Assembly: GCA_030704615.1 (NCBI GenBank)
Contig: CM060733.1
Coordinates: 53,630,001-53,694,000, forward strand
Direction: 5' to 3'
DNA from: Takakia lepidozioides
Taxonomy: Eukaryota > Plantae > Bryophyta
DNA: 64,000 nucleotides
A program made the translations under genes and the position numbers. Shown here piece by piece: positions 7,721-64,000 of the stretch. Below the pieces are notes generated by a model. The model was not told the origin of the DNA. It did not search any database and saw only the letters and a program-made list of their open reading frames with translations. Position 1 is the stretch's first letter. Each line of letters begins with the position of its first letter.

Positions 7721-7965
7721 AAATGGCGCCGAATTCCCAGAATGGGTGCCAGCCACCCCCGGGACTTAGCCATTTTCGGGGCCCGGAACTGGAAATTCGG
7801 CGTCATTTTCCAGGCTGGGTCCGAAAGTGGCCATGTCCCAGAAATGGCTGGGCCCCAACCTGGAAAAATGGCGCCGAATTTCCAGAATGTGTGCCAGCCG
7901 CCCCCAAGACTTAGCCATTTTCGGGGCCCAAATCTGGAAATTCGGCGCCATTTTTCCAGGGATTT
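7721..7965. repeat. Intronic GGCGCCGAATT-core repeat (partial copy of the 55.3-56.2 kb array)
   Basis: 7721-8100 closely matches ~55944-56325. Confidence 0.85.
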
Positions 7966-8062
7966 AGCCATACTTCACAACCAGTTGTCATGCCCCACAC
8001 AAGCCGTTTTACATCCAGGGACTACAATGGCCACAGATCAAAGAGGAGCACCGCATATTTAC

Positions 8063-12835: not shown

Positions 12836-12852
12836 AGGGATCTAGGATCTAG

Positions 12853-16900: not shown

Positions 16901-17867
16901 GGCGTATATGCGACTGCATGGCTCCGGACTCTGCGCAACACAGGTCAAACATGTTTGACCACGAATATTGGCATGGCAGATATGACTACTAGTCACGGTC
17001 ATGGCTACACTGGAATGACGTGTACATATTGCTAGACAGACATATGACTTCATGACTCTCATTCTAATGCATTCTGCCAGATCATCACATAGATGAATCA
17101 CTACATGACTGCACGTGTCAACACATGCTTTTCTGGTTATATATATAATATATGAGTATTTATATTTTGAAAAAACGGAGACTCTGACCACTAGAATGAA
17201 TTAAAAAAAAACAAAAACAAAAAGTGCAAAAAGATTTAAAGAAAAACACATGATAGAGTAAGTGGCACAGTGTGTCGCCCTGGTGGTTTGGGATTCAAAC
17301 CCGCTGCCCTTATCCTATATGTGGGATTGTTCGTGACGGTATGTCTGGGCGTTGATCATCCTGTAGGTCTTATGGCCCATAAATGAAGGCGGGTGAAATT
17401 TTCCCCCTCCTCAAGGGCCCGTGGTTTCCTTTAAGAAAAAAAAAAAAAAAATCAAAAATCAAAAAGGGGCTTTTAGGGTTTATAAAAAGGTTTAAAATCT
17501 TAAAAAGTTGCCCATCACGGTAGGGTGAACAGACTTAGAGCAAGTGGGAGGGAGAGAGAGAGATGGCTGGGATTAGAGTGAGCGAGCGGGAGTGAGGGCA
17601 AACATGCATGGGAGTCAGCTTCGTCTTAGCAGGCCGTGTTTCAATCTCTACCCGCTCAGCCCTGATTTTACAACACGGAGGAGAGCTGGCATTAGTTTCT
17701 TAAAGATCCTTCACGATGGTTGGACAACCGCAATCGCAAGGTGTGGCTTTTACTTGGTTGAACGCCGTCATGTCTGTCTTCGTAGCCTACTTTCTTTGCT
17801 GCACGACATCTTGTAGATGCCCCTTAGATTTCCTTTCTAAGCTTCTCCTAGACGACAAACAATTCAC

Positions 17868-31204: not shown

Positions 31205-33310
31205 TTCATTAGGTATATTATCTGGTCCAGGTACTTTAGAGTTGGATAGCGATCTAAGACATGTGTGATAGATTTCGGGGGTGAGGGATGCACTTAGGTC
31301 TATGTTCAGAGGGCCTCTTCTTTCTAATTTGAATCCATCGATGTCATGCCATGGATAATGGCGAGCTTGGCATGCACAATGTTGTATATGAGAGGAGGGC
31401 TGGAAGCATGCATGGGTTTGTGGTTGGTACATGGCTGAGGCCTGTTGGTAAATGGTTTTATTTTTGAGTTTGAGAAAGTGTGTAGGATTCCAGTTGTGTC
31501 CCGAATCGCTTATAAAGGGAGAGAGGGGGAAGAGTTGAAGATTGATTTATGAATGATACGAGGCTTGTCTTGCAACATTTTACAATAGGATTGGATAAAT
31601 TTCTTCTGATTATGTCGAGCTTGCTCTTTGGTAATATTATAAGTAGTTTTTTTGGCGTCTCGGCCAATTTTGGAGATTGATTTAATCCATGTTTGAATGT
31701 CATCATCATCCTGAGGGCCGGGAAAGCTGTGTAACATGTAGGGATTGTACGGAGGGCTGCAATATGTGGGGCATTTCTTCATTGGGGGTCTTATGGAGTG
31801 GTTGAGAGTACTGTAATAGCTTTTCGGACTGTGTGATGTGTGTTTGGTTCTTTTTGCCACTGTCTTTGCTGCGTTCTAGTTAGGTGTCCTCCATTTATTT
31901 TGGATCTTCCAGTTGGGGGGGAGGTGTGAGCCACCATACACGTATCTAACGTGCATTCTGTAATTTGAGTAAAATTTTGTTGCAATTTAGAGCTCGCCTC
32001 GTCCCAGATCTGAGGGGGGGGGGTTCAACGAGCATCAGTCTAGTATAGTTTGCAGTTCCGATATGGTTGTGGAGGATATGGATCTAAATTTAGTTTGGAA
32101 AGCCAGGATGGACAAGGGCGAGATAAGAGTAGGTATTCGAGGTCTTGTATCTAAGGAGGGGTCGTTCAAGATTGGACCTATTGGTATAATATGTGATGGG
32201 ATGCGGAGGAGAATTGGGTAGTGGTCAGAGTTATATATGGGGTCATATAGTATTGTGTTGTGTAATTGTGTGGGATTGTCGTTATGTGTTTTGAGAAAGT
32301 AGCCATCGATGAGACTATGTGAGGTATAGTCTAGTCCTCTTTGCCTCGAGAAAGGTTGGTTTGAGGGGATGTACTAGAATCCCAGATTTTGGGTGTAAGA
32401 TGTCTACTCTATATCTTTTAACGAAGGAGGGGAATGTACTCCATTATACAGTCTGCCATGTAGGGTTAGGTCTCTGTTGAAGTCTCTCGCAAGAAGGATT
32501 ACAGAGGAGGAGTTAATTGGGTTATTTGAGAAATTTGCAATTTGTTGTAGTATGTCTTGGGTAAGTGGTGCATCATCTGGATGTGAGGGCATATATAGAT
32601 GGATGATACTGAATTTTGGGTAGGGACCGATGTGTATTTGCACTATTTGTGGGTGGGATTTGAGGTGAGCTGGGATAGTAATCTTGGAGGTTGTATCTTG
32701 CAAGTGCATGGATTTGTGTATTCCAATTGCTACTCCTCCCCGAGCTAGTTGATACGGTAAGGCGTGTCGTCTAGTGTATTTTTCTGGTGAGGGGGTGCTA
32801 CCGTATATCAAATGATATTTATGTAATATCTTATTTATGTACGTATTAGACGTATGCGATTGGAGTTTGGTTTCTTGCAGTAGTATAATGTGTGGGGGAT
32901 TCGGCTCTTGGAGTATAAGTGATAGGGTGGGGACACTAGAGGCGATGGAGCCGATGTTCCATGTGAGACGTATTAGGGGCTGATCTAGTAGATAGTCTTG
33001 CTCATAAGGAGGAGGGTTGTTTGGAGGCAGGGGTATAGCTGGTGGTGAGTTTGGTGTGATGTCAGCAAGACTAACCGACGTGGTTGGTTGTGGTGTATGT
33101 TTGGGTGTGCAAAAACTAGGCAGACTTGTGAGAGTGTTTAGTGTGGCTGAGAGGATCTCTATGAAAGGAAACTTCATGGTGATATGTTGTAGGGTATGGC
33201 AAGATGTGGGTGGGAGAGATAACAGATACGTTGTGAGTAGTTGGTGAATTTGGCCAGGTGGAGCTTAGAGGAGATCAAGAGAATTGTGAAGGCAGTTGAG
33301 GGGGTGTGGC
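31205..33310 (-). mobile_element. Dualen-type LINE ORF2: APE endonuclease and linker (pseudogenised)
   Basis: LTWNIGS..IILLQETKL..GGVAIGI..HLYMPS..DFNRD..SLIDGYF..NSDHYPILL (~32205-32975); KVPGPDNIPNE at the 31205 end. Confidence 0.88.
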
Positions 33311-33317
33311 GGGGCAA

Positions 33318-33895
33318 CCCCAATACAAAATGTGGTCAATCATCCCCCATACAAAATGTGGTCAATCATCCCCCAAAGGCGGCAAAAGATAGATATACCT
33401 CAGACTTTTGTCATGCCGCAATTACTCTAAAGCTAGAACCACAAAATACTCCTTATTCAACTGTACGATTTAGGAACGAATATTCTATAGCCGTTGTGAC
33501 ATGCAAAATAATCGGACAAAGATGCAAAAATGTAGCTCTCAGCAGCATAAAACAACCCACACAGTTCTTGCCACTATTCTCAACGAACAACAACAACTCC
33601 CAACTATCCCAAAAGGTAGAACAAATATTGATCCTCTCATCTCCAAACAAGCTAAACGAAAATTACAAAAATGGATGCACAACTATACAACTGTGCAATT
33701 ACATATATTACTTATACGATGTGGAGATATCCACCCCAACCCAGGTCCTACAAATCGACACTGTTGCATAACACCACTAGCTACTAACCCAATCATAAAT
33801 GTTGTCCATGTACCAGACCCCATTCAGAACATTGTAATGCATATCCAAAGCAACCAAAACAAGATATGATATATACTTTTACCCCTCCACAATTA
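33318..33895 (+). other. Inverted internal segment of the LINE containing a 2A-like motif (LLIRCGDIHPNPGP)
   Basis: Strand skew flips to A/C-rich relative to both flanks; 26-bp tandem duplication (33323-33374) at the left junction; motif at 33720-33749. Boundaries approximate. Confidence 0.7.
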
Positions 33896-35372
33896 CGCTA
33901 GAATCGCGCTAGGTTTCGTATGACGGCGGATGTCTTGGGGGCTTGGTATTATGAAGTATATACAAGGCGCTTGTAGTATATTTGGACGTAATAATGTATG
34001 TATATTTGTAATATTGTTGGGTTTCAGTTTATGTGTCATGAGCATACGAAGTCCGAATATATGAGAATCATTTTTATTACGATTATTATTATTATTATTT
34101 ATTTCATTATTATTATTTTTATAATTTTCTATTTTGTTTCTTGGTGTGAGCGGGGATGAAAGGGATAGGGCAAAAGAGTCGTAACCAATCTGGTTACCCC
34201 TTGGATGTATGTGGAGTGTATTATTTGGATGATATCCATGGGTTTGAAAGTTGGGTAGGGCAAGTGGGCTTGGAACTGTGCATGGACTTGGTTGCGGGCA
34301 ACAGGAGCTCTCATGGAGGTATGCTTCAGTCGAGGTTGAGTGTAGGGTGGTGTATGCATGGCAGCCGGGTGGCAGCGTTGTCCTTGGGCCATGTGGGCTG
34401 TGTCGTGTATTTATGTGTGGGCTTGATAGACGAAACAAACGTCATTCATTTTTATTGTAGGGAATTGAAGATGGCTGGTGTGATAGTAGTGTGTTCGCAT
34501 TGGGAGCTGTATTTCGGTTATTGCAGTGGCTTGAGTAAGTAGTCTTCGTGCAGGGGTGCAGTTCATGAATTGAGGTAAAGGAGTGGCAGACGTGTTGTGA
34601 TTCAGAGAATCCTGTAGGTATCATCAATAATAGGTTTTGTGCGGCATGGTCCTAAGCTGTGTGATGACGCACGTTGTTACACGGGTGGTGTTGATTTCGA
34701 GTTCCTGGTGTATTTTGGCAGGGAATGCAGACTATTGAGGGAAGGCAGATTATTGAATGACATCCATTTAATGTTGGTTTAGTCCAGTTTGGGTATGTCG
34801 AAAGTATGGGATTTTCTCGTGACAGCCCGAGTAGCAGTTTTGTTGCAATGAGATAGCATGTGCAGTTTTGGTTTGGGTTGGAATTGATGTAGGGGTTTTT
34901 ATGCTGGGCAGGATAGGTTGCTAAGGCAAGATTATATTTTCTGCGTTGTGTTAATTTTAGGTGTAATGTCTGCAGCCAGGTAGTGGTGGTTGGGCTTTGG
35001 GTACTTGAAGTGTCATGTTTTTGAGATTGTGCTGGTCGATCAGTGTCGTGGGAGTAATATTGATTACATGCAATGCAATGGAGTTTGTTAGTAGCCTTGT
35101 GAGATGGCAGCAAATTCTGGTCCCGTGAGTGAGAGAGTATGATGTTGTGTGTTAGTCGTGTTTGATCATCTATGTCGGGGGCAAACAAATCGTATAGAAA
35201 TATCTTGTTGTATAGCATTATAAGCATGCTCAAGTACATGATAGCTGGAAGATAAGTAGAGCTTAAACGGTATTTTGCTTTGTTGGACAGAGTATGGTTT
35301 CCTAACAAGCTCCTAACACCAGCAGTGTCACTCATTTCCCAATCTTTTCCTGGAGGTACTAGTCGTCGGGTG

Positions 35373-36960
35373 CTAGTTTGGCACAGGGGAAGGATGGTCA
35401 CTTGTGATAACAATTTGTTCGATATCCCGTAGGGTTGCTTGATTACGCGTCCATCGTGAGAATGCGTTAGCCGGTGGTGGCTGGTATTGGAAGACCGATT
35501 CCAGTTGAGCAGGTGCCATAGTATTCGAGTGGCTGGTCAGCTGTAGCTTGGAGACAGCAAATTCCGGCAGCTTGTTCATCATGGTGTTGAATTGCGTCTG
35601 ATACGCTGTCATGTTATAGGCCAACTCCTCTGGTTTTGCCTCAATTTCCGAGACAACCTCGTCCTTGAGGGTAACCAATTTTTGTTTGTGTTTCTTATAT
35701 TGTGCTGTCACCAGGGAGAGTAGCTCTTGCATTAGCACTCCGTTATTGGGTCCCGACTGGAGCTGTATTGATTCAACAATGTTAGCCAATGCCTTGTTTA
35801 TGTCCGTGATCTGCGTACGCTAGAGTGTTACAGGGTCAACCGGAGTCGAGCCATTCAAGCTGTGGGGGTGTGGTGTGATATCCAAATTTTTTCCCAGGAT
35901 TCGAACATTCTATTTCCCTTGCCAAAAGTTGTAGATCGTAGCATTCTTGCAGGTTATGTGGATAGTTCCTGCGTGCTGAATTCTCTCTTTGGAGAGATCG
36001 TTGGTGAAAAAGGTACCGGCAACATTTTCTTTTCCCATTATTTGCAGAATGACATTACAAACCTTAATCTATGTTGAAGTGCTCCGGAGCTGATGGATGA
36101 TGACAGTAAGCGCATCTCGTTCTGCAACTTGTTGCTTTGGCTGGATAGTTGCCCCGCTGAGGCTGTGCAATCATTCCTGCACCTGGAGCATCTCATTCTC
36201 ATGTCATAGGCCATGTGCCAGGGCTCGAGCTCTGGTTTCTTCTGTTGCTGCGTACAGATAACCAAAGTTGGTCTCTGTCGTGGGTTTGCCAACATAGAGT
36301 ATTTCAAGTTCTTCTCCCGCATTATAGGCCTCGTAAACGATGTTCGCAGCGACTTGTGTGCCAGGTAGTCCTTGCATGGTGGAGCCTTTCATGTGCAGTG
36401 AGAGTCTGTCCCCGCTACTCTCAATTTCAAAAAAAATTTCACCTTGCTTTGAACTTGTGTATCATTTGTCATTGGAAGTAAGAACGCTCTGTTGTTGAGC
36501 AAAAGATCGATGCCATCCTTTTCTGGATGCTGGAGGCAGACCTTGATGAGCCCGGACCATATCGTAGGGTCTTTCTTATGCCCGAACACGGAGATTGGAT
36601 GTAGCACTTCAGTCCCCAATGGGAATGGATGTGAAGCGAGCCTTAGTTTGCGCCATGATTACAGAACATTTGATGACGCGTTCTTTTTCGAACCAGGTGA
36701 GTATGTGGTATCCCACCGAGAGTCCGATGGCTGGATGCGTTTCTGCATTCTTCGGAAGTTGAGTGAGATGCAGGTACTGTTCTTCTTTGTTATCGGGTTT
36801 TTTAAATAGATATAACAGCTGAGGCACTCAGGGAAAAGACTTTGGGCACTCCAGCAATTCGCTGCATTTTTCTGGGGTGATGCCTAGTTGTAGGAGTTCT
36901 TTGGGCAATCTGATGTCATGTATGATTGGAGCTGCATAGCTCTGCGCGATGCTTTCCATA
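35373..36960 (-). mobile_element. LINE ORF1-like pseudogene (RRM-like + coiled coil), copy A
   Basis: YLHLTQLPK..IWSGLIKV..DGIDLL..EILYVGKPTTETNFGYLYAATEETR; helical C-terminus; upstream of ORF2 in the same orientation. Confidence 0.6.
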
Positions 36961-45800: not shown

Positions 45801-47870
45801 ACTGCTGGTAAACGTGGAAGTGAAGAAAAAAACGTATGAGCTCCAAGATGAGCATGAACATTGAATTTTGAAAGCATCAGCCTCGGACTCTCCTTTATTG
45901 CGAGCCCTCCTTCCAACGACTACGTGTTCATGACCCAAATAACAGTTGAATGAGAAAAACAATGGTCAACAGGTGGTCTGACAAACACATGGGCTGTTTC
46001 ATCTGTGCATGTCAGCTTTGTTTGTGCTGCCTTATTAGACAAGTACAAAATGGCAGATATGGGCCACATGCATGTCAGATTGGGTTTTTGTGAATGCAAG
46101 TATTGCAGGTGACATGATGTCAAATGTCAGAAGTCGGCGCCGACTTCCCAGTGAATCGCAGGTCGGTCAGAAATAATATAAAGTGGAGCCCACCCCAAAG
46201 TTACTCGGAATTGAAAATGTGGAATTTGAATTGCAGCATAAATTTCGAAAATTTCCATGTTCTTCCTTTACTAACGGCAAGTCGGCGTCGACTTCCCCAG
46301 AGATGTCCTAAAATTTGTTAACTTCCTCAAAGTATATGAACAATTGTCCTTCATTCATTTAGCCTCACAAGAATGATTTGTCAGGGCCGGAATCACCCAA
46401 CACGCATCTATACCTTGAAATAGTTAGTTGGTGCCGAATTCAGTGTCTTTGAAATCCCTAATTTGCAAAAGAGAAGATGGGGTGGGCATTCATCCACATA
46501 ATCTCGGAAGAGCACAAATGACCTCAGGTTTTTGCTATAGAATGTGACGACAATTTATAAACGACAAAATTACAACGTTTGAGTGCCAAGTCCGCACCGA
46601 TTACACAGGCTCCAACACGAACGCAGGAGCTCAACTACAGGTGATAAATTATTCCTCAACCAACATAAAATGTACCTGGAAAGTCATCACAGAAAGATCG
46701 TCTGCATAAACGGAAAATAACAAAAGGTTCGCCTACACAATGGGCAGGCGACGTTCATCTGCAACCATGTATCTATGCAAGCGGAGTGGAAACAGTGCCC
46801 ACACAAAGTCAAAGTTCGCACGGAGTCTGCTGGCTATGGACACTCCATACAAATACTACAGGCATCGTAAGCAGACCCTTCATCAACAACAATACATTCG
46901 GGAAAAGCCGTGGAAATGAAATCCAATGACAAACCAATCCAATGCGGATCAGAGTCGTCGACGCCCATCTCGTCAACGTCATCGTCGCCGATTTCGACTT
47001 CAAGCCCTTCTTCCGAGTCGTCCGAGGTCGAGGAATCAGATAATGCATCGAGCTGTGGGACTATAGATGCATGGAGTACTTCGTGTCTTGCAAGGCAATC
47101 CTCTAGTATATCTGCCTATTTTCTAGTAATTTTCTAAGCAGAAAACCCCTTTAAAACTAATTATTTAGGCTGGAAATTCACTCATAATACAAAAATAGGC
47201 ATTAGGTAGGAACTTATCTAAGCTTTCCAATGACCTATGGCTTGGCCTCTAGATACTTCACTAACCCCTTCTCATTGCCCAAAAACCCTTCTCATGGTGA
47301 GGAAACCATAGGGAAATGGCCTTATAGGTCAAAACACCCCCTTAGGCCCTTAATATGTCATCCTGGTCAGAAAGCTCCCTGTCGTCGTCCTCAAAATGGT
47401 CAATCACCGCTTTACTAGAATTGTCATTCATCACACGATCATTATAATTATCATCTTTTCATCTCATGAACAAGACTTACACATTCAACCATTTCGAATT
47501 TTGTCCCCTAGTGACTCAGGGCGTATAGAACAATACATTATGTACGGCGCCTTTGCAGCAAACCATGTTGGGGTCGGTATTTTTGGAGGAGGAAAGGAAG
47601 GATTCAAACAGAGTTGTAGTCGAAAGTATTGTTGTGCTCCACGATGATTTTGACGACGGCAGGGATTGGCGAGTTCCACCATCGGACAACGTCATATACA
47701 GGGCTGTTGGGGACTTCATTTGCCCGCAAAATGCGTCTTCTATCCTAGCGCTTCCACGAAACAATCCGCGAATCAGAGAGTGGGTACCTCAAAGAGAGAA
47801 GTCCGCAACGAAGTAAATCTAGAGCCGCTGTGCCGCCAGTCTATTTTTCGTCTGAATGGCACAGCCTACA

Positions 47871-48650
47871 TTTCCATCCGAGGGCGCTCAGATGAAGTCG
47901 TCTTGGGGGAGAGGCCGACACGTGACTGACAGAGAACATCCCCCAGATGGAAAAACGGCGCCGAATTTCCATCCGAGGGCGCTCGGATGAAGTTGTCTCG
48001 GGGGGAGAGGCCGATACCTGGCTGACAGAGAATATCCCAGGGATGGAAAAACAGCGCCGAATTTCCATCCGAGGACGCTCGAATGAAGTCGTCTCGGGGG
48101 GAGAGGCCGACTCCTGGCTGACAGAGAACATCCCCCGGATGGAAAAACGGCGCCGAATTTCCATCCGAGGGCGCTCGGATGAAGTTGTCTCGGGGGGTGA
48201 GGCCGACACCTGGCTGATAGAGAACGTCCCCCGGATGGAAAAACGGTGCCGAATTTCCATCCGAGGCCGCTCGGATGAATTCGTCTCGGGCGGAGAGGCC
48301 GACACTTGGCTGACAAAGAACCTCCCTCGGATGGAAAAACGGCGCCGAATTTCCATCCGAGGGCGCTCGGATGAAGTCGTCTCGGGGGGAGAGGCCGACA
48401 CCTGGCTGACAGAGAACGTCCAACGGAGGGAAAAAGGGCGCCGAATTTCCATCCGAGGGCGCTCGGATGAAGTCGTCTCGGGGGGACAGGCCGACACCTG
48501 GCTGACTGAGAACGTCCCCCGGATGGAAAACGGCGCCGAATTTCCATCCGAGGGCGGTCTGATGAAGTCGGCTCGGGCGGAGAGGCCGACACGTGGCTGA
48601 CAGAGAACATCCCAGGAATGGAAAAACGGCGCCGAATTTCCATCCTCGGA
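47871..48650. repeat. 96-bp minisatellite x~8 with internal hairpins
   Basis: Unit ATGGAAAAACGGCGCCGAATTTCCATCCGAGGGCGCTCGGATGAAGTCGTCTCGGGGGGAGAGGCCGACACCTGGCTGACAGAGAAC..; shorter related units at 48790-48930. Confidence 0.95.
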
Positions 48651-50819
48651 CGCCCGTATCGACCCATCATCAACAATTTTCAGTCGTTGCATTACCTTTC
48701 TCGCGTTATTTTGTCTAATCCGACACTCAACTTAGAGTTTTCTCCCTTCGGGCCACTTTTTTGGCACGTTATCCCTACAAATGTCGTCCGCTGGAAACAA
48801 ATTCGGAGCCGGTTTTCCATCCGGTCGAGCTCTGACTTACCTGCACGATGGAAATTCGGAGCCGGTTTTCCATCAGGCCGAGCTCCGACTTACTTGCACG
48901 ATGGAAATTCGGCGCCGTTTTTTCCATCTAGCAGGTTGTTAATGAAGTCTCGGGGGGAGGGAGGGCCAGTTGGCGCCTATGGGCGAGCTCCATACCTATG
49001 ACATTCATGTGCGCCGGCCCGCATTAAATGCCCCCCGCCGTCGGTTTTGAATTGGACGTTCCACACGGATTCCGCGCTTGCTTCCCGGATACGCCTTGGA
49101 CACCTGATGTGACGGGTGGATGAAGTTCCATTGGAGGCCTGTACGCACACATTCTGCGGGAGATTTTTTGGTTACTCGGACTTATGCCACGTGGAGAAGG
49201 GCGTGGCTCTCTTGAGAGAAACCCCACATCAAGACCGCGGCACAAACTCAAGCCTTTGTACTACGGGCGGCATCCAACGTCTCGCATGGCCAAACTGAAG
49301 CTCCAGCAGGAGATCCCTTGTCTTGCTCACAGCCCGCGCCAACTGAAGCCGAGCACTCTCAGGCGAGCCCCTGCTTCTTTCGCTTTATGAAACATGTGTG
49401 GTCGTCTTCTTCGCTTTGTTTTGATTGTTTTGGCATCCTTCTGCTGCTTCTGCATGTGATTGTTAGCCATTGCTTGGTTTTGCTTTCATGGTTGTTCCAT
49501 GCCACTCCCTACTCTGCCTCTCATGATTGTGGCTCGTTTGTTGCTTCCATTTCATTGCGATTGTGGTGCTCATGTTGGGGATGACAGAGTGAAGACGAGC
49601 GCGACACGGTGGTGGTATCATCGACAGCTCCAACTGCTCGAGCAGTCACTCCAAAAGCGGCTACTCATCGAGCGCAGTCAGACAATCGTCGGCAGCAATC
49701 GTCGGACCTAGTGCTTGGCATTTTTGGATCGCCAAAGTTGGGGCAGGAGGGCACACACAAACTTGCTCCTTTTGTTGGTGGACGGGAGGACCTGCAGCGG
49801 GAGTACTCCATAATAGGCATTCGGGAGGTTGGTGCAGCCGGCATGGCAGGTGAAGGGCGTTGGATGAGGACAGCAGATCCGCCAATTGAGGAAGCTGATG
49901 CACATGCAGGAGGGCCCGCCCACGCAAAGAAGAAGAGGAAAGCCAAGCACATGCAATCCCCGGCGAGAGAGCCATCACAGGCCGTGGAGGGGGGAGTAAA
50001 CACGGCGCGTGAGGGTGTCAGTTCCCCTCAATCAAAGGTGGTCATCCTGGAGGTCTCCCTTGCTGCTACGCCTAGTAAGAAACAGAAGGCCCGTGAGAGG
50101 GCAAAAGAGAGGGCAAAAGAACAGGCGAGACAAAAGGCTAGCCAGGAGGCAATGAAGAGGCCAGGGGTGTGGAAATGACAGATGCCCATGTAAGCGAGGG
50201 ACACACAGAGACGGTGGATCCTTCCAAGACACCAGAACAGGCAGTAACACACCGGCTGCATTCTTACCGGTTACGCCATCGCGGGTGGGAGCAGCCCCTG
50301 CAATTACCCATACGGTGGAGACTGGGGGAGGGGAAAGAACACCACAAAGACCACGGATTGTAGGAGGTGGAGGTGAAGCCGGGGAGAGGGCAGTAGAGAC
50401 GGGGAGAGGGCACGATGTGGATGCGACTGTGCCTCGTATCACTCGACCTAGTTTAGTGAGAATGATAAAATACACTAGTGTTTTCGAAATGAAAATAAAA
50501 CTGGTCGACATGTTGCGAAAACTAATGGTGGCGTATTGGAATTTGTATTATTATGATCTTAAGGTGAATAACCCGAGGAGGTGCACCAGTTTTGGTTACT
50601 CATTGATTTTGCAGCAGAATTACTTGGTGTTGTTCGGGATGAATATTTGAGAGAGGGTTGTCAATTCGCATGTCCGGATGTGGAAATGAATTATGTTCTT
50701 TTCTGCTGCATGTCCTTATGTTTATTTAGGGGCTTTAACATGTACGTCATCAATAGTTGCACATATTAGATGACAAATAGATTACTTGGTTGGAACCTGT
50801 AATCATTAGAAGAAAAACA

Positions 50820-53447: not shown

Positions 53448-56325
53448 TCACTCGTAAATCGGGGGCTCCTCGGCCTCGATCCCAACTTGTACCTCCCCCT
53501 GCTCCTTCTCGGATTCTTCCTCATCCTCCGAGGATGCCTCTTCCTCTTTTGGCAGACATTCAGCCGCTGCAAGTTCGGAGTTGTGGAGGGCAGTATCTGG
53601 CTCAAAGGCGAAGACATGCCTGTCGGACAACGTCGCAGCCCACATTGAAGCACCTGAGGGACAAAGCGGGCGGTTAGTAGCAGGCGGCATGCAATTGCAA
53701 TCGGGCCAGGGGACATACTGTGCACGTGAAGGCTTACCCGTGCCGCATGTGAGGTCAAGAATCCGCCCTTGGACATCGGAGCACGTCTCCATGAGGGTTT
53801 GGATGAAAGCAGGGCTCCCGATCCGGCTGTACCGCCACGATTTGCATGTCTTTGTGTCCTTCGGCATACTGGAGTGGGGCACATAGTTGTAGAGGACATT
53901 GTAGGTAACAGGGTCCACAGAGGCATCAACAAGACGACCGTCGTTGCAGAATTTGAACGTAGACCCTCTCTTCACAAAACAATATGCCTCAAACACCAAT
54001 GTCTGCACATCCAACAAAAGAGGGATCAACTCCAAGGTCTAGTTTAGATACACCACGATATGAAGTGAAGGCAATAGATTGATAACTTACACTTTGGCCC
54101 TCTGTTCGCAACCCCTGCATATTGATGCAGAACCATTTTTTGAGGAGGACCGGGGTGGGACTTTCAGTGTCCACCTTGCCACAACATTCTCTGTGGTCTT
54201 CCCTCTTGTGGCAAGGACCACCATACATCCACCGTCATCCAGGAGCATCCCCGCCAGCCCAAACCCAGCTCTCCAGTAGTCCTCCATAAACTTGTTCTAG
54301 GTGGGCACACCATCCAGGCCCTCCAGCAGCTCCCCATCTGGAATATCGAGGAGAATCATATCGCAGGCTCTCTCCACCTCAAACCCCCCCCCCCCCCCAA
54401 GTGCTCTTACAATCCGTGCTCACAGCCGTGAAGAATTCCATCATGGCTTCCAAACCAGGGGTGTCTTTAGGCTCTGTACCGGCAGCCCTCTTCTTGGCTT
54501 TCCCTTCAGCTCCTCCAGAGACTTGTTGTGTGCCACCTTCTTCGCCCTGGCAGCCAGAGCGTCAAGGAAGCTCTCATTGAAGCATTGGATGATTGTTGGG
54601 GGTTCTAGCTTTGGCCTCTGGGGAAACATCACCGCCGAATACCGCCGTGTAGGCTCGCCCTCAAATGCCAACTTCTTGGCAGAGCCAGTCCCAGTCCGAA
54701 CTGACTTGGGAACCCGGACAACCGGTGACTTGGTAGCAGCAGCAGCAGTCACAGGACCTTGCACAAAGTCGTCATCGGAGTCACTACCTTCGGGCCCCTC
54801 CTGCGCCTCTTCTCGTGCCCCGGTGGTTTTCTGTTTTTTAGGGGTTACTGCAGTCCCCTGTTTCCGTGTCCTTTTCTTTTGTCCTTTATTCTTCTCATTC
54901 AACTTCTCCTAAATACTTGCCTGAGCAAGCTCTGCCACTTTCCTGGACTTGGCAAGCGCTTTCGCCTCCTTTGGACCCAGCGGAGGCAGCGGAGCCCGGT
55001 TTTGGCGGGCCTCAGCCTCCGAGCATCCAGCTTCAATTGAAACTCAGGCGTCGAGCGAGCCGGGTGGAAGGTCCACATACCAAGGGCAGTCGGGCAAATG
55101 CTCCAGATGCCACTCCTTCACGATAGCATCAGTGTACATGGAGTCAGCTCTAGGGTTCCTCCATGCGAGGAAGAATGGCGGCTCGAAGGACAGATGACCT
55201 TTCTCCAATAGGGAGAACTTGCAATACCTGCATTCAAGTAACCCACAGAGAATCAGGTCCCGGGAATGAGGTTAATGTTTCGGTAAGAAATTGTAAAAAT
55301 GGTGCCGGATTTCCATGCGGGGGGTGCCCGCTGCTCCCGGCTCCCCATGGTGGCGGGCAACGAAACTGGTAATTCGGCGCCATTTTTTCTGTGGGCGAGG
55401 CAGCCCCTTCTGGGACTTAGCCACTTTGGGGCCCAAGTTGAATAAATGGCACCGAAATTCCAAATTCGGGCCCCGAAAATGGCTAAGTCCCGGGGTAGCT
55501 GGCACTCATTCTAGAAATTCGGCTCCATTTTTCCAGGTTGGGGCCCAGCCATTTCTGGGACTTGGCCACTTTCGGACGCAGCCTGGAAAAATCAGGTTGG
55601 GGCCCAGCCATTTCTGGGACTTGGCCACTTTTTCGGACGCAGCCTGAAAAATGGCGCGAATTTGGCAGTTCTGGGCCCCAAAAATGGCTAAGTCCCGGGG
55701 GTGGCTGGCACCCATTCTGGAAATTCGACGCCATTTTTTCAGGTTGGGGCCCAGCCATTTCTGGGACTTGGCCACTTTCGGACGCAGCCTGGAAAAATGG
55801 CGCCGAATTTGCAGTTCTGGGCCCCGAAAATGGCTAAGTCCCGGGGGTGGCTGGCACCCATTCTGGAAATTCGACGCCATTTTTTCAGGTTGGGGCCCAG
55901 CCATTTCTGGGACTTGGCCACTTTCGGACCCCAACCTGGAAAAAATGGCTCCGAATTTCCAGAATGGGTGCCAGCCACCCCCGGGATCTAGCCATTTTCG
56001 GGGCCCGGAACTGGAAATTCGGCGCCATTTTCCAGGCTGGGTCCGAAAGTGGCCATGTCCCAGAAATGGCTGGGCCCCAACCTGGAAAAATGGAGCCGAA
56101 TTTCTAGAATGGGTGCCAGCCACCCCCGGGACTTAGCCATTTTCGAATCTCGAAATTCGGCGCCATTTTTCCAGGGACTTAGCCATTTCTTCACAACCAG
56201 TTGTCATGCCCCACACAAGCCGTTTTACATCCAGGAACTCCGGGGACTACAATGGCCACAGATCAAAGAGGAGCACTGCATATTTACCTGTACAGAAGGC
56301 GCATTGCCGCTTTGTCCGCGTTCGG
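53448..56325 (-). pseudogene. 3' half of ParB-fused beta-class amino (N6A/N4C) DNA methyltransferase gene
   Basis: Intron 55228-56287 joins RLLYR|YCKFSLL in phase. Lys/Glu-rich linker, then motif IV-like CDMILLDIPDG (54333-54347) and LLDDGGCMVV. Then PAFIQTLMETCSDVQGRILDLTCGTG|ASMWAATLSDRHVFAFEPD (motifs X, I, II) after removing an 84-nt GT-AG intron at 53654-53737. Stop at 53448-53450; internal stops present. Confidence 0.78.
55310..56200. repeat. Intronic ~140-bp composite repeat array that inverts near 55910 (long fold-back)
   Basis: Units GAAATTCGxCGCCATTTTTTCAGGTTGGGGCCCAGCCATTTCTGGGACTTGGCCACTTTCGG..; 55927-56190 is the reverse complement of the preceding units. Confidence 0.9.
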
Positions 56326-56519: not shown

Positions 56520-57520
56520 TTAAAATTTATTTACAACTGCCAATATTGGCGGTCTCATGTTTTTTCTCTTTCTTGAAAACGCCTACGACCGCCAATATTG
56601 GCGGTTACAAACATTCTTAAGGAAAAAAAAAATTCTGTTCTTTTAAAATGCTTACACGCATTTTGAAAAACAAAAAAAAAAAAACATACGATCGCAAGTA
56701 TTGACAGTCGCAATCAAAAAGTTTAATTTATTCTTAATTTAAAAAAACCAATTTCAGTTTTTTCTTGAAAAATACGTGCGATGTCAATATTGACGGTCGT
56801 ATGCATTTATAAGTAAAATAAATTGCTGCGATCGCCAATATTTGTGGTCGCATGCATTTATTTATTTTTAAAAATTACGACCTTCGATGTTGACGGTCGC
56901 ATGTACTTAAAAATAAAATAAAAATGACATGGTTGTTGATGTGACACATTTTTAGCTTTAATTTTTTTTACTAATATATACGCAAAACCGACGTGATGCA
57001 GATCGCGTCAGCGTCGGGTCTGACGGGACCTAACGTGACGCGACCGACGTGACGCTGATAACTAGGGCTCCATCGGGCGACGAGTGACCAGCTTAGGCGG
57101 TCCAGATATTAATAATTATTAATAGTTAAAATCGTCAACTTTCATGGTCCCGATGTCAATAATAAAATTGGAACTGCCAGATCTTGCGGTCCCGATACTG
57201 ATAAAAAATAATATAAATATCGGGACCGCGACTATGCTGTTTTTTTTTGTTCTTTTTTTCTTGATGACCGATAGGCGATGTCGACGATTGGGCAAACGTT
57301 GGACGACCGTTCAATGATCGTACTTCTAATTACTTCAAATTTTCAATTTAATTGAATTTTTTTCTCATACGTGTAATTTCCGAGGGAGGTGGACACTTAC
57401 GTATTACACTTTTCAACCCGGCCTGAATTAGATTACTGACACTTAAAACTAACGTGACGCAGGCCGCTTCAGCGTCAGGTCTGCCGCGACCTGACGTCAC
57501 GGACGCAGATAACTAGGGCA
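56520..57520. mobile_element. AT-rich non-autonomous DNA-element ends (CGCCAATATTGGCG palindromes; two CGTCAG..ATAACTAGGGC blocks)
   Basis: Repeated GCCAATATTGGC palindromes at 56530-56900; related direct repeats at ~56990-57068 and 57450-57519; shared block with 37.9 kb. Confidence 0.5.
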
Positions 57521-58287
57521 TAAAAAAAAAAAAAAAATTGTGTGTTATGGCGCTAAGGTGGGGTGGTCTCTCCAACTTCTTCCTGTGCACGGGTTGAGAA
57601 GAACGCTACGACGTGAGCGTGTGAGCCCAGGCTGACGCTTTGGAATCACAAGATGGAATTACGGATGGATGCAATTATATGAGGGATGGAATTATAATAT
57701 GGATGAAGGATGACCAGGTCAGCGGAAAGCGGATGATGAAAAAATAAGTGGCTCAATCTGGTCCGTCCAGATAAAGGGGGCAGATTTGAAGGAGAAACAT
57801 AATATATCTTTTATATTATAATAATGAAGAAAAACTGATTAAACAGTCTCATGGGTATCGGTGCTTACATTCACATTAGTTGGTTACTATTTTTAAAAGA
57901 TACTAGAAGAATGGATGACATCCGTCTGTCAAATCGACAGTGATGATGACAAAGGTAAGGAGCCGCAGTGGCTGCTATAAAGCAGCCCTGTTCGAGGTGT
58001 CAAGTTAAATAAGCACAGTGTGAAACTAACTAGAATAAAGCTAGTTATTTATATTTAACACTTGGATTTAGGTCAAGTGTTAAATCAGGTGTCAAGTTTA
58101 GTTGACACCTGAACCGTCTTATCTTCACGAGAGCGTCAGTCGCGCAACTCATCTCTCTCGAGTTGAGCCTGCGCGACCGAGCTCCTTCATCGCTTCAGGA
58201 GTGAGTGTGCCATGAAAGATCCACAATCCTGTTTCTAGAACCTGTTCTGGTCTACATGAGAGATAAATCTGGGGATGTACTCCTTGT

Positions 58288-59037
58288 ATGGCTGGGGGAA
58301 ATGAGGACGTAATTGAAGGGCAGGTCTCTTCTCTTAGCTTGTGCACACAAGAGGACAAGATTTATGTTTCCCAAGGAACTCAGACTGATTTGAGTGGAGA
58401 ACAGTTGGACGAGTTGATTGCATACTGGGAGTCAGGCATTAGCAGTAGACAACAGACTGCTGTAGTTGGCGTTGAGGGCCTCAATATCGCTTTGGACAGT
58501 CAGAACTCTGTTGGAGCCAGCAGTTCTGCAGCTGTAAGTGAAATACCAAAGTGGGTGAAAGCTAGGCTTGGAACACAGCCAAAGACAGCCCCGGGGACCA
58601 AGGTGTTCAACCACAAGGTTGTGGTGTACTGGAGCAGAGGAGCAGGAGCTACACAAGTTTGTGCAATCAGACACGGTTGCAGCCAGACACGCTCTGCACA
58701 AGGCAATCACGAGCGGGGGTTCATTAGCAATGACAAGTTTGTTCTGCGGGAAGGAGATGCAGTCATTCGCAATGAGGACACCCGCAACCGTCTCAAAGCT
58801 TTCGAGTTGAGAGACTATCAGACCCTACCTTTGTTTTCTTTAATGTTCAGTGAGCGGGAGATAGGGGGATATTGCTTTGTCTCTACTTGGCAGAAAGAGG
58901 AGGAGGGTTGGTTAGAGCGAGCTACTGTAGCTTGGGACAAGGTTAGTGGCAAGTTTCTGGACATAGATATACCTCCTACACCTTACCATCATGCAGAGCG
59001 AGACACTTTGAGAGTAGTCTGGCAGTTGATAGCATAG
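58288..59037 (+). CDS. Uninterrupted 249-aa ORF upstream of gag, unknown function
   Basis: ATG-to-stop ORF, same strand as gag-pol, non-repetitive composition; no family recognised. Confidence 0.45.
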   Translation: MAGGNEDVIEGQVSSLSLCTQEDKIYVSQGTQTDLSGEQLDELIAYWESGISSRQQTAVVGVEGLNIALDSQNSVGASSSAAVSEIPKWVKARLGTQPKTAPGTKVFNHKVVVYWSRGAGATQVCAIRHGCSQTRSAQGNHERGFISNDKFVLREGDAVIRNEDTRNRLKAFELRDYQTLPLFSLMFSEREIGGYCFVSTWQKEEEGWLERATVAWDKVSGKFLDIDIPPTPYHHAERDTLRVVWQLIA

Positions 59038-59739
59038 ATCAGGATTACATCTTGCTTGGTCGGGCTTCTATTCTTCCCCTCCATCTCTGTACTCATTACC
59101 TTGTACTTGTAGTTGCCAAAGCCTCTCTTGGTGGAGGCCAGTCAGTCCGGGGTTTTGGGCTGGGATATTCTGCAGGATCAGCATTGCAGCCGGATTTTGG
59201 TGTGGGGGTGTTGATGTTTTGATTTCTTGTGTTTGGATCCCCCCCAACACCTGCATGTTTGACTGTGCGCCATGTTGGTTTTGTGTGGGCGCTTGCTTTC
59301 ATAGGGATTAGGCCAGATTTGATCACCGGTCAATCCTAGAATATGCTGTCGGTGGTGAGGCTGGAGTGATGACCAACAAGACCACCAGTGTTTCTTCTAT
59401 GGTGAGGCTGGGTTGATGACTAGCCAACCATAGGAGTTCTTGCGGTGGATGCAGGTGCAGGTGCCCTGAGCCATTGGAATATGACCCTTAAACTGCAACA
59501 GGTGCCTACCCGTGTCACTATTAGAATTAGTAATAGAGCCTTATAGTGTTACGTGGGGAAGGTGCACATTGTGAGTGTCATCACGGAGTTACCCAGGGTT
59601 CTGAGGGGAGTACGGCTACAGGCAATAGCAGTGAGAGTGGGTTCACCAGACAAGGTGTTCGTTTCAGACCACCTTCACCTCCACCCTCAACTAGTGCAGA
59701 GTCAGACACAGACTTGGAGGCTTCATCAACATGTGTGCA

Positions 59740-60990
59740 GTTTCATTCGCCATTGTTGTGGGACGACATGGAGGAGATGTATGGAGCTACCAAGGGGCCT
59801 CGTAGGTACTCTGGAGCTGTGGGCACAATCGAGTTGGATGGCTTTATCCAGGAGTTCGACAGCTGGTGTGATTTGCAGTAGATGCGCAATCCACAGCTAT
59901 TCACCCCATTCATGGCGTGGAAGGGACTGTTCCAGCATTTGGAAGGCCCGCCCATGGACGATTACCACAAGTTCAGGCGAGGACATGAAGCAGAGATTGA
60001 GGAGTGGAGGATGTATTGGTCACCTGACTACGTCTCCATTACTCGAGGCACGACGCGACTAGTAGCTGCATCAGTACCAATATCTCCCACTGCCAGCACT
60101 AGTAGTGGAACAAGTAGTGTTGGTACTTCTGCAGGTGGTACCAGTTCAAAAGGTGCTACTACTCCTCCTGCCACGACTACAACACATGTGCCTAGATTCA
60201 ACCCGGTGGTGGAGTTCTTCCAGGAGTTGCGGAGGAACTACCAAGGTGTACGGACAGAGAAGCTGCGAAGTTTGCAAGACTTCCAGCGCAAACCCAGTGA
60301 GAGCTTGCGAGAGGCCTACACTCATATGAGGCGCTTGATAAGTGTGACCCAAAGGGTTACTGAAGCTCAGGCAATCTTGTTTTGGTATGGAATTTTGGAC
60401 AAGGAGCTCAGGAGAAGGGTGCGGGATGCAACCCTGTTACAAGCAGCCCAACCCACATTAGCAGATGTGTTAGGCACAAGGGACTGCCCAACAACGTGGT
60501 CAGGGGGGCAAGGTTTCCCAACCCAAGTTCCATGGAGCTTACAGGGGACCTCAGGTGCAAAGGCCCGTGGCATCTTTTGCAGGCCAACAGCAACCGGGGG
60601 TGATATGTTGGACATGTGGAGGACCCCATGTCAAGAGAGATTGCCCAGAGAGTGGCAAAAGGCCGGCACAAGCACAGCCTGCACAGTTGCAGTGTGGGCA
60701 TTGTGGCAAGTATGGGCATGGAGATGCCCAGTGTTATGACTTGCATCCTGAGTTGCGCCCAGGCCAGTTCCAAGGGAACAATGGTGGCCGGGGGCGAGGT
60801 GGACCAGCCCAGAGAGGACGAGGTGGTCGGGCACGAGGTGCAGGCCAAGGGCAAGCTCAACATGGCCAAGGACGCGGAGGTCAGGGTGTTGACCAAGGCA
60901 TGGCCAACTGGCTTCAGCAGCTAGAGCAGAGGCTCGCTGCCATGGCCACAGCCCAGGCGGTACCGGCGGGATGGTCCACCTCCTGCGCCT
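59740..60990 (+). pseudogene. Gag (capsid-like + two zinc knuckles), disrupted
   Basis: LDGFIQEFDSWCD..LQDFQRKPSESLREAY; CWTCGGPHVKRDC and CGHCGKYGHGDAQC; RGG-rich tail; in-frame TAG at 59879-59881 and a frameshift. Confidence 0.85.
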
Positions 60991-61659
60991 GAGGGAGGAG
61001 ATATGGGAGGCATGGGATTCATGTGCGGAGCAGCGCTACCACTAGAGCAAGTGGAGTCTGCTGCAGCCGTGACTTGAGGAGCATCACGAGTTCCTGAGCC
61101 ACGAGGTGCAGAGGTGGAATTGGATCCACAGCGTGGGGAGGCAAGCCGTCAGGCGAGGCTTCCTCAGTCATTCACATTGGCGGAGACAGTGTCGACGCCA
61201 TCCATGGCACATAGTTCTCGCCTGACTGTTACCGAGGCGGAGGTTACTATGCCATAGGGGAGATCTACACGTGCAGCACTGACACCTGCTACCAAGGCTA
61301 GTGCAGCCGGTGTTGTTGGGGGCAGCCACCTCTGTGTGTCAAGCCCCACTGTTCTTGGCAACCATGATTGCGACGCTGGGGGTAAGACCAGCTGCAGTGT
61401 TCAGACTAGCAGCAACACTCTGTGAGAGTGGGGAGGTCACTTCATCTTCTGCGGAGTTAGTGGAAGGTGTAGTGGCAGAGGGATCCTCGGATTTGAGGGT
61501 CAAGACTGCCACGGCTGCGCCATGGCAAGTTGTAGCTGCCAGGTTGACGGAGCTGCCAGCTATGCCAGCCTTTGAGCGCGCCATGGTGACACCTGGAGTT
61601 GTCTTGTTAGACAACCAGGATGACATTTTCACTTTGAGTGGACCGGCAGGCAAGAAGTA

Positions 61660-61975
61660 CCGGCCACTGCGGGTCTTGTTGGACTCAGGAGCTCAGCCAC
61701 TGATGTTGGGCAGAGCTGCTATTGCAGGTTTGGGCCTCATGGAGGCGGATATGGAGCCTTGTCCTTTCCAGATACAGACATCTCTGGGAGGATCAGAGCA
61801 GGCTCAGGGCATGACACGACGTGAGTTGGCCATTGGACTACAGTCGGATCATCCTGTAGATGGCTCAGTGATGCGAGCCAAGGCCATTGTGACAGACGCG
61901 GTCTCTTACGATGTCCTCGTTGGTGGGGCAGTGTTATATCCCATGGGCTTCACCCTGGACTTTTGGGAGGAGTCA
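61660..61975 (+). pseudogene. Retroviral-type aspartic protease domain
   Basis: RVLLDSGAQPLMLG...YDVLVGGAVL. Confidence 0.85.
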
Positions 61976-62389
61976 GCATCCTACAGGCCTAGATGGCAGT
62001 CAGGGGATGGTCGTCGTGCACAGCTCCCTGTGACATTCATTGGGGGTATTACGGCTGCCCAACGGGGCAAGATGCCAACACTAGCCGCCTTTACAGCTGC
62101 AGTAAGTTGGCCTGGAGAGTTGCTGGAAGGCAATGCCCATGCAGAGGATGTGCCACCTCCAGCAGAGCAGGATGACATGCATGGTATGGCGGAGTTGCCT
62201 GCCATGGTTGCTCACACTCCATTGTGGGGTACAAGCAAGGATTTGCAGCAGGTTGCTGATCGACGGGTGCAACAAGCCTGGGTAGAGGCTTTTGTACCGT
62301 CAGGAGAGGAGGAGTGTGCGGGTATTGCACCAGGACCACCTCAGTTGTCACCATTGGATACCACACCTATTGTGTGGCAGTATCCGGAT

Positions 62390-63310
62390 GAAGGCATTTG
62401 CCTTCTGGACTTCTTTGGCGGGATCAGCACCGGATTGGCTGCTGTGCTACAGACAGGTATGCGGATAAGGCGTTACCTATATGTGGAGAGGGATGAGACT
62501 GCACGATGCGTCTCACTGCGCCATGTTGCTCAGTTGATACAGCAGTACCCTGCTTTGTTGCCAGTGTCTGCAGTTCGTGGATACCAACAAGCCTTGCCAG
62601 CAGACATTTTGTTGCTGGGGGCGCCGGATTGCTCCATTGATCTGGTAGTGGCAGGTTGGCCCTGCCAAGGGCATTCATCAGCCGGGCATGACAATGGATT
62701 GCGAGACTCAAGGACGGGTCTGTTTTGGGAGATGGTGCGGATTTTGCGCCACTTGCAGCTTCATCAAGCTGTATCGCCAGCATACATCTTGGAAAATGTG
62801 CCACTGATGGGTCCGGTCGTGGCTTGGGTCAGCAGTGTTGCTGGATGCAGCTGTAGTGGGGTCACGGGCTCATCGTCCACGGCTTTGGTGGACTAACTTG
62901 ATGCCACCCGCACTGCTCAAGCGTGCATTTGATGGGGTGCAGCGGCCAGCACACCTCACCGTGGATGGCATTTTGGACACAGGGAGGCAGTCTCAACGTG
63001 TGAGACACGATGACCGTTCGCCTTTGGCAGTGGTCAACAGGGTGGGTCAACCACGAGCAGCATTATCTACATTGCTCAGCTTCCCAGGATCCCATGCTTT
63101 TCGGGATGGTGGACCTGGCCTCCTGTGGGATGCTCAGTTGCAACAGTTAGTGGAGCCTAATGCCGACGAGCGAGAGCAGGCTATGGGATTTTCCACTGGG
63201 ACCACGGCGGTGCCTTCTCTTTCTGAGGCATCACGTCGTCAGGTGTTGGGGCAAGCAATGGATCTCAATTGCTTGACTTGGATTATCAGCTTGGCTATGG
63301 CTGAGCAACA
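62390..63310 (+). pseudogene. DNMT3-like cytosine-5 DNA methyltransferase domain within pol
   Basis: Motif I LLDFFGGISTG (62402-), II YVERD, IV DLVVAGWPCQG (PC 62660-62665), VI YILENV (62792-62800), VIII RAHRPRLWWTN, IX EREQAMGF, X LGQAMD; frameshift near 62810-62835. Confidence 0.92.
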
Positions 63311-63399
63311 TAGAGTGCGGAGTGCACTTCCCTTGACGGTCTCTCTGCCTACCGAGACGGCACAGGCAGCGAGTGAGGGCGAGCCGGTGAGGACCACGT

Positions 63400-64000
63400 T
63401 GGCCACTAACACGCCAATCTTTCGGAGACCCTATAGATACAGTGACATGGAGAGGTCTTTGATTCAGATGAGGACTCAAGATCTCTAAGAGACAGGTTTG
63501 GTGGAGCTCTCTGGTGGAGAGTATGCTTCAGCCACAGTGATGCCAGCCAAGAAGGGTGTCTATGGCAATTGGACGGAGAGACGTATGTGCGGTGATTACC
63601 GGCCTGTAAATCGTCAGACCAAGTCCGATAGGTATGCCATGCCGACACCAGAGGAGATCTTTGATGCCATTGGGCATTCCAAGGTCTTTAGCACGTTGGA
63701 TTTACGATCCGGATATCACCAGTTGCCGATCAAGGAGGCGGATAAGCAAAAGACGGCATTCTGGGGGATCAATGAGCACGGGAAGGATTGCCTATACCAG
63801 TGGCGGTTCTTACCATTTGGGCTTAAAAATGCTCCCGCTAAGTTTCAAAGAGTCACGGACAGGATTCTAGCAGGGGTGGAGTTTGCTCGGTGCTACATAG
63901 ATGACATCATCATCTTTAGTGCTATGATGGAGGAGCATGAGAGACCCCCTCAGGGGGTATTTGAGCGCTTGAGGACGCACGGATTGAAGTTACATCCGGG
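63400..64000 (+). pseudogene. Ty3/Gypsy reverse transcriptase (partial)
   Basis: PIFRRPYR..RMCGDYRPVN..FSTLDLRSGYHQ..KTAFW..LPFGLKNAPAKFQR..CYIDDIIIFS (YIDD 63894-63905); TAA at 63486-63488. Confidence 0.95.

Follow-up and report, generated by a model that had tools for sequence, protein, structure and literature searches.

Gene content of the locus

The window analyzed here, a stretch of 64,000 nucleotides from the moss Takakia lepidozioides, carries on its forward strand a decayed Ty3/Gypsy element that extends from position 57998 to the window edge at 64000 and encodes Gag with zinc knuckles, an aspartic protease, a DNMT3-like domain and a reverse transcriptase (RT). The copy is dead and present here with its 5' part; it belongs to a highly repeated family that encodes a DNMT3-type cytosine methyltransferase. 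The original prediction of a Ty3/Gypsy element with a DNMT3-like domain between protease and RT agrees with both the domain order and the Pfam matches.

The probable 5' end of the element lies at 57998-58200 (+), with the right limit approximate. It starts with TGTCA, like repeat A of the relatives described below, whose 5' ends start with TGTCATG. In contigs of public runs mapped onto the window, the depth rises from about 57 to more than 250,000 within the bin 57964-58027, and the contig of the unique flank ends at 58024. Two hairpins were found at this end (58053-58085 and 58085-58112). The interval 58029-58112 as a whole can be read as three adjoining short hairpins with three GTCAAGT-like repeats; these are perhaps sites for the integrase or a promoter.

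An open frame of 256 codons, a doubtful gene, follows at 58267-59037 (+). Neither Pfam and NCBIfam nor the Atlas and the loci of the relatives gave a match to it, its structural model failed to fold (pLDDT 33), and its polymorphisms (3 synonymous versus 7 non-synonymous) gave no synonymous excess; we did not accept it as a gene. The frame lies in the repeated 5' region, and no indels are listed for it in the family contigs.

Gag and its two zinc knuckles together span 59768-60764. The capsid part (59768-60472, +) matched Retrotrans_gag with an E-value of 0.008 and is 63% identical to residues 1-226 of the Marchantia protein P0385; it is interrupted by a stop at 59879-59881 and by a frameshift near 60472. 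The two CCHC-like knuckles, the second of them degenerate, are at 60606-60734 (+). The aspartic protease (61604-62002, +) has its active-site motif at 61676-61696, while the aspartyl protease Pfam models matched at E-values of 0.002-0.004, under their curated cut-offs.

The N-terminal half of the DNMT3-like domain (62375-62811, +) has motifs I (62408), II (62480), IV (62648-62671, with the catalytic Cys kept) and VI (62786-62800), and a small in-frame deletion near 62631. As originally predicted, the protease site and these four motifs share one frame. It runs from stop to stop at 61283-62896 and is 537 aa long, the 531 aa given earlier presumably having been counted from a start codon. This frame matched Pfam DNA_methylase with an E-value of 5.6e-12. 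The frameshift inside the domain arose because about 40 letters present in other family members (runs X1, X2, X6) were deleted from the window copy at 62812-62815 (+), where the alignment shows a gap. The C-terminal half (62829-63317, +) continues in the next frame (62808-63488) with motif VIII (62868), the target-recognition region, motif IX (63168) and motif X (63246). Alone, this second frame had no Pfam match, yet it showed 70% alignment identity to an intact relative.

A remnant of the linker between DNMT and RT occupies 63318-63397 (+), as seen from loose contig ends at 63398 and from comparison with the linker of the relatives. We estimate that some 110 codons are missing here, including the stop conserved in the relatives; the family contigs carry additional sequence relative to the window copy at both 62631 and 63398. 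The RT (63398-64000, +; RVT_1 E-value 4.4e-24) has YIDD at 63894, contains a stop at 63486-63488 and is cut by the window edge. Thus, of the earlier description of motifs VIII, IX and X passing into RT in the next frame, the motif positions hold, while the stop at 63486-63488 lies inside the N-terminal part of RT. The direct run from DNMT into RT proved to be a product of an in-frame deletion near 63397 by which the window copy lost its linker.

The window copy is dead, with at least four frameshifts and two stops (59879 and 63486). A Marchantia protein aligns to it in five blocks with at least four changes of frame. The CpG observed/expected ratios of its DNMT (0.57), gag (0.41) and RT (0.67) regions, set beside 0.45 for a LINE of the same window, revealed no CpG depletion specific to the element, as its ratios are not below that of the LINE.

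Family abundance and relatives

We gauged the depth of the family by contigs of public runs mapped onto the window. In run X1 the summed depth was 57-153 over the flank (57000-57935) and 291,000-1,284,000 over the element; these sums are not copy numbers, but so large a difference marks the family as highly repeated. Depth over the DNMT (675,000-1,284,000) was not below that over RT (805,000-1,044,000).

A protein search with the N-terminal half of the DNMT returned 19 long proteins with up to 71% identity, 14 of which are Marchantia polymorpha models. A DNMT profile search (7992 candidates scored) gave 100 proteins; the species-named ones come from Marchantia, Calypogeia fissa, two Sphagnum species, Klebsormidium nitens and Closterium, with no vascular plant among the species-named proteins of these 100 matches. 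The full scan with the DNMT produced 487 clusters at an E-value of 1e-30 or better. In viral contigs we saw only distant DNMT matches, at 17 loci with 23-43% identity.

The position of the DNMT between protease and RT is shared by Klebsormidium P0224 (protease-DNMT-RT-RNase H-integrase), Closterium, Sphagnum and Marchantia; in Calypogeia the protease-DNMT part is visible. RNase H and integrase lie downstream of RT in relatives such as L022, L057 and P0224. The DNMT domain of 331 residues is collinear from Klebsormidium to mosses and liverworts. In Marchantia polymorpha the family accounts for many unlabelled gene models, several of which hold a full Gag-protease-DNMT frame of 1278-1281 aa. The domain order in the named Marchantia, Calypogeia and Sphagnum proteins bears out the suggestion that the lineage persisted into land plants. 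The family is thus repeated and keeps the same slot across lineages, the opposite of a domain present only in this copy, which the original prediction had set against itself.

Two architectures were observed, one with the DNMT between protease and RT (the same slot as in the window) and the other with the DNMT between RNase H and integrase (the other slot). The DNMT domain either moved or was gained twice. The second arrangement forms a large group of its own (loci L072-L084; P0019 and 46 other proteins) with the order RT-RNase H-DNMT-integrase-PHD, often in open frames of 1600-3300 codons.

Conservation of the DNMT3-like domain

The best PDB matches of the domain are to DNMT3A, at 76 bits, compared to at most 39.5 bits for HaeIII, DRM2, DNMT2 and HhaI. 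A structural model of the open-frame domain of L022 (pLDDT 96.6, from a 52-row alignment) had DNMT3A/B as its first structural matches, with TM 0.72/0.84. By sequence and predicted fold, we assign the domain to the C5 cytosine methyltransferases of the DNMT3 family, with DNMT3A/B as the closest members. Motifs I to X stand in unpermuted order with the Cys, ENV and RxR residues, and in the window copy they are split by the frameshift.

The residues for SAM binding, together with the Cys, ENV and RxR, are nearly invariant over 165 proteins (50 same-slot and 115 other-slot). All but one of the 50 same-slot proteins (49) and all 115 other-slot proteins retain the catalytic Cys, and the Glu of ENV is present in all 165, the 50 same-slot proteins included; loss of the catalytic PC/ENV from most members, which had been named as a possible objection, was therefore not observed. 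The Pro before the catalytic Cys is replaced by Glu in 12 of the 50 same-slot and 57 of the 115 other-slot proteins. Of 50 genomic copies, 49 retain the Cys (the remaining one is uncovered), while the first Arg of motif VIII survives in 31, its changes being of the CpG-decay type.

The original proposal to compare dN/dS of DNMT and RT was followed. For the eight pairs shown between families, pS was saturated (0.67-0.77), with pN of 0.19-0.25 for DNMT and 0.12-0.20 for RT. The median dN/dS of the DNMT was 0.15 over the 43 computable of 65 distant pairs, in place of the neutral evolution that had been considered. Close copies (496 pairs of one close family), where decay after insertion dominates, gave 0.51 for DNMT, 0.36 for RT, 0.37 for RNase H and 0.53 for integrase; the 55% identity filter dropped Gag and protease from the set. 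These ratios indicate that the DNMT domain is under purifying selection, somewhat weaker than that on RT.

Phylogeny

In the larger DNMT tree the sequences with the protease-DNMT-RT order fall on one side of a branch (57 of 181 rows, support 0.905). They form one clade in the smaller DNMT tree (33 of 46 rows, support 100/99), the rows of which were hand-picked from the 181, and also in the RT tree (20 of 90 rows, support 0.975). The DNMT and RT trees leave out host DNMT3 and DNMT-free Gypsy elements, and the DNMT tree leaves out redundant partial Marchantia models and domains of less than 230 residues. The window copy belongs to a starred group of 12 rows in the 46-row tree, together with Calypogeia, Marchantia and Sphagnum sequences.

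According to the RT tree, Closterium and the land plants group together to the exclusion of Klebsormidium, while the DNMT tree leaves that node open. The branching order of the hosts is the same, with Klebsormidium outside Closterium and land plants. The simplest reading of the trees would be vertical descent from algae to land plants. The suspected common lineage with the Klebsormidium element is supported by the shared slot and by the single clade in both the DNMT and RT trees. We accordingly place the window element in the land-plant branch of KnitGypsy-Dnmt3, and not among one-off captures, because named relatives have the same domain order, their DNMTs form one clade and the domain is under purifying selection.

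A conserved stop after the DNMT

In loci of the land-plant type, DNMT and RT share one frame with a stop 76-77 codons after the DNMT (91 in L022), and RT, RNase H, integrase and a PHD finger follow behind the stop in the same frame. In 21 of 31 loci the stop could be read in frame, and the others mostly have a frameshift in the linker. Its context fits the motif TAR-CAA-YY in 29 of the 31 loci (20 with TAG, 9 with TAA), which we take to resemble the signal UAG-CAR-YYA that directs readthrough in tobacco mosaic virus. The Marchantia and Calypogeia models end 92-94 residues past motif X, and the two closest proteins (P0172 and P0364) end shortly after the DNMT. With its linker deleted, the window copy does not display this stop.

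Since an in-frame stop follows the DNMT and the Marchantia and Calypogeia models end there, the DNMT forms the end of ORF1 (Gag-protease-DNMT). This differs from the original picture of a DNMT inside a continuous Pol: in the land-plant relatives the domain precedes the conserved stop. RT, RNase H, integrase and PHD finger are likely made by readthrough, which at a low rate would add them to Gag-protease-DNMT. Because the DNMT ends the Gag-protease frame ahead of a readthrough-like stop, it is likely that the enzyme is made in bulk, at the level of Gag.

Terminal repeats and a proposed route of insertion

The evidence on repeats was drawn from metagenome contigs of two related families; members of one family are not independent of each other. 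Self-comparison of four loci (L057, L085, L063 and L065) revealed the layout A-coding-B-A-B, and B-A-B ends were seen in three more (L037, L064 and L069). Six loci have B without a following A (A-coding-B). Two complete identical LTRs flanking the coding region were not found in the relatives, and the window stops short of the 3' end of its own copy. The relatives would therefore be classed as Gypsy by their domains and as non-canonical by their repeats.

The ends of the relatives are TG...CA. The six insertions with both ends available have target duplications of 4 bp, perfect in four cases and with one mismatch in two. No B was found upstream of any of 15 distinct 5' ends. The B|A joints, six in total, all read CA-GC-TG or CA-AT-TG and are near-palindromes. 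A polypurine tract precedes B1 (the B before the second A), while the stretch directly after A1 is complementary to the middle of A over up to 17 nt. This primer-site complement exceeds that in shuffled sequences in 9 of 13 loci, L020 having been excluded from the shuffle test as its A repeat precedes other sequence; the second family has a different sequence in the same place. In the window copy (57998-59770) no such complement of at least 9 nt was found.

We propose that the working LTR would be B+A, because the polypurine tract stands before B1 and the self-complementary primer site after A1. Reverse transcription would be self-primed via the site next to A1, and the resulting linear cDNA (B-A...B-A) would be closed into a circle. 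The DDE integrase could then open the circle at the palindromic B|A joint inside the LTR, leaving CA-3' ends, such that the inserted copy would be the circular permutation A-coding-B-A-B. The six A-coding-B forms may stem from circles with a single LTR or from recombination between the B repeats. We never saw the other permutation, A-B-A-coding-B, and the model leaves its absence without explanation.

Alternatively, a tyrosine recombinase acting along a DIRS/Ngaro-like route, or a rearrangement that followed ordinary insertion, could have produced the same layout with no integrase cutting a circle. The layout is indeed that of DIRS-type elements (PMC5890265), and the six loci with B lacking a following A would also fit. 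However, the relatives have an rve integrase in which, apart from decay of the G-to-A type, the DDE triad is kept (D in 18 of 18, D in 14 of 19 and E in 16 of 19 covered loci). A tyrosine recombinase in its place is unlikely, no recombinase family being among the Pfam domains listed for the proteins of the profile search. In L057 only about 750 bp separate the integrase core match from B1, and these hold the PHD finger. The TG...CA ends with 4-bp duplications likewise speak against these alternatives, as do the private variants common to B1 and B2 within a single element, seen in two of the four cases (L069 and L085). We therefore regard both versions as very improbable.

Two further observations concern joints between repeats. 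An A|B joint in L054 (13165-13453) still has some of the primer site lying between A and B; this is what a circle closed imperfectly would leave, although rearrangement could also have produced it. The distant other-slot loci L082/L083 have a joint of LTR end to LTR start, an 11-nt primer complement and one 12-bp CA-GC-TG palindrome in the LTR (an equal palindrome was reached in 47 of 2000 resamples). This pattern is in line with the circle route and suggestive only, as the tandem may reflect assembly.

Circles of LTR elements are usually viewed as by-products or a dead end. If the proposed route is true, the family would be an exception to that view, and its absence from the output of pipelines built on paired LTRs would be explained in spite of its great abundance.

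Possible role of the element-borne methyltransferase

Fused to Gag and protease, the DNMT would be carried into the particle, meet the new cDNA there and methylate the element's own DNA before insertion. We consider it reasonably probable, and the best explanation, that the enzyme is made in bulk on the Gag-protease protein, packaged, and active on the element's own cDNA ahead of insertion. In our opinion the benefit would most likely be that a new copy resembles ordinary methylated host chromatin from the start. In inserted copies the C to T values were 0.186 at CG, 0.214 at CHG and 0.057 at CHH, compared to 0.019 for A/T. Such decay in all contexts points to the pattern of host silencing, with no private mark and no lasting escape. 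Since inserted copies show the CG, CHG and CHH decay of repeats silenced by the host, any benefit would be early or indirect. The lack of activity of the Klebsormidium enzyme in yeast (PMC5890265) also speaks against methylation of the element's own cDNA.

The DNMT might instead act in the nucleus on chromosomal DNA, at existing copies or host loci, for example by damping the family's own expression. Production at Gag level, far above the need of one cDNA, would fit such a role, plant DNMT3 acts on heterochromatin (PMC6453930), and self-limitation was raised earlier (PMC5890265). Still, a fusion to Gag and protease should bring the enzyme into particles, and the DNMT has no chromatin-reading domain, the PHD finger being on the integrase. 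We find a nuclear role unlikely.

Even less probable, in our estimate, is that the domain was kept for something other than DNA methylation, either to bind cDNA ends or the circle joint or to methylate element RNA. The unusual end structure could need a helper, the algal enzyme was inactive in yeast (PMC5890265), and the Pro-to-Glu replacements next to the catalytic Cys would also suit this reading. The near invariance of the SAM-binding, Cys, ENV and RxR residues argues against it, as does the domain being far closer to DNMT3 than to the tRNA enzyme DNMT2. Capture of a host DNMT3 piece by the window copy alone, followed by neutral decay, can be dismissed: the broken state of this copy would suit it, but the collinear domain in the same slot from Klebsormidium to mosses and liverworts, the single DNMT clade, the low dN/dS and a DNMT depth equal to that of RT rule it out.

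Returning to packaging and cDNA methylation, we tentatively advance a wider reading, with confidence somewhat short of even. It would describe an ancient green-plant Gypsy lineage, extending from algae to mosses and liverworts, whose DNMT3 at capsid stoichiometry methylates the cDNA and whose DDE integrase opens a circle at the LTR palindrome as its normal substrate.

Relation to known elements

Retrotransposons with a DNMT were already known, as the original prediction had stated, from Klebsormidium and dinoflagellates (PMC5890265). The closest is KnitGypsy-Dnmt3 of Klebsormidium nitens, a Gypsy element with an unpermuted DNMT3-like domain (de Mendoza et al. 2018, PMC5890265). Expressed in yeast it gave no methylation, a result called inconclusive by its authors (PMC5890265). 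The land-plant family resembles it in the slot between protease and RT (P0224), in the DNMT and RT clades and in the purifying selection; the DIRS-like A-coding-B-A-B layout (PMC5890265) is shared with the close relatives of the window copy, itself cut before the 3' end. The differences are the land-plant host, the very high repeat depth compared to few copies in PMC5890265, and the conserved stop between DNMT and RT in the land-plant relatives, whereas PMC5890265 puts the DNMT in the Pol frame. In its available parts that paper is silent on target duplications, a primer site, the junction and any model of integration; entry into particles and methylation of cDNA are proposed there for DIRS elements.

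The dinoflagellate elements SymbioDIRS-Dnmt3 and SymbioLINE-Dnmt also carry a C5 methyltransferase of their own, and the former established de novo CG methylation in yeast (PMC5890265). With their tyrosine recombinase or LINE backbones they are independent captures (PMC5890265). Another independent capture of a C5 methyltransferase is found in the EpiLTRs, in which the DNMT is sister to DNMT4 and accompanied by DAM and a chromodomain (bioRxiv 10.64898/2026.05.21.726589). Among host enzymes, plant DNMT3 (PpDNMT3b) is of the same family with unpermuted motifs, and differs as a cellular gene whose product acts in CHH methylation and in de novo methylation of CG (Yaari et al. 2019, PMC6453930). 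The element DNMTs are reported to form a separate, divergent clade (PMC5890265).

As in the relatives described here, the primer site of the self-priming Tf1/Sushi and Tcn1 Gypsy elements is directed to their own LTR and not to a tRNA (Neumann et al. 2019, PMC6317226). Those elements have ordinary paired LTRs and mostly a chromodomain (PMC6317226), in contrast to the PHD finger, DNMT and permuted repeats seen here. The survey in PMC6317226 required canonical LTR pairs with target site duplications, which our elements would likely fail. A parallel to the proposed B|A cut is offered by the foamy-virus integrase, which cuts palindromic junctions of 2-LTR circles (Delelis et al. 2005, PMC1180852). 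In foamy virus the cut at the LTR-LTR junction restores the normal linear form, while the cut proposed here, inside the LTR, would lead to a permuted insert.

In the open-licence literature, with subscription papers, theses and repeat libraries outside the search, we found no paper that places DNMT-bearing Gypsy elements in land plants or describes permuted ends. Two texts (bioRxiv 10.64898/2026.05.21.726589 and PMC12344493) speak of 'streptophytes' with reference to the 2018 paper, and their figures or supplements could include bryophyte sequences. The available parts of PMC11982613 and of the Chlamydomonas v6 preprint hold nothing on DNMT-bearing Gypsy elements. Within that literature, then, the kind of element was known from Klebsormidium, and the land-plant members, the stop and the anatomy of the ends were without an earlier report that we could find.

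Transposon-borne methyltransferases have raised the question of their role since 2018, in hosts that are difficult to handle experimentally. The family members in Marchantia polymorpha make the question testable in a model land plant. An extra source of de novo DNMT3 also bears on work on bryophyte methylomes and on counts of DNMT genes.

Other features of the window

The remainder of the window contains a host gene and several decayed repeats. A multi-exon cation-efflux (MTP4-like) gene lies at 1300-3550 (-), with an exon at 2725-2925. Apart from three seed-plant entries that led by summed score with 74-76% identity, the best species-named full-length single-domain matches of this exon (67 residues) were to the mosses Ceratodon and Physcomitrium (82%) and Sphagnum (85% over 88% of its length), compared to 72-75% for liverworts and 73-79% for seed plants, which makes a moss host likely. 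The PPR repeats reported earlier are real; they belong to a degenerate PPR gene at 11471-14456 with tandemly repeated internal segments and frameshifts. Two segments that lie in separate frames, and that an intron may divide, are present at 53450-53900 (-). We take them to resemble the SAM-binding end of N4/N6 DNA methyltransferases; they had no Pfam match and, in NCBIfam, only a methyltransferase match at an E-value of 0.16. Decayed LINE elements with endonuclease and RT pieces occupy 17841-20786 (+) and 26000-35500 (-). GC-rich tandem repeat arrays were observed at 47840-48730 and 55150-56200, the latter of which resembles the sequence at 7691-8167.
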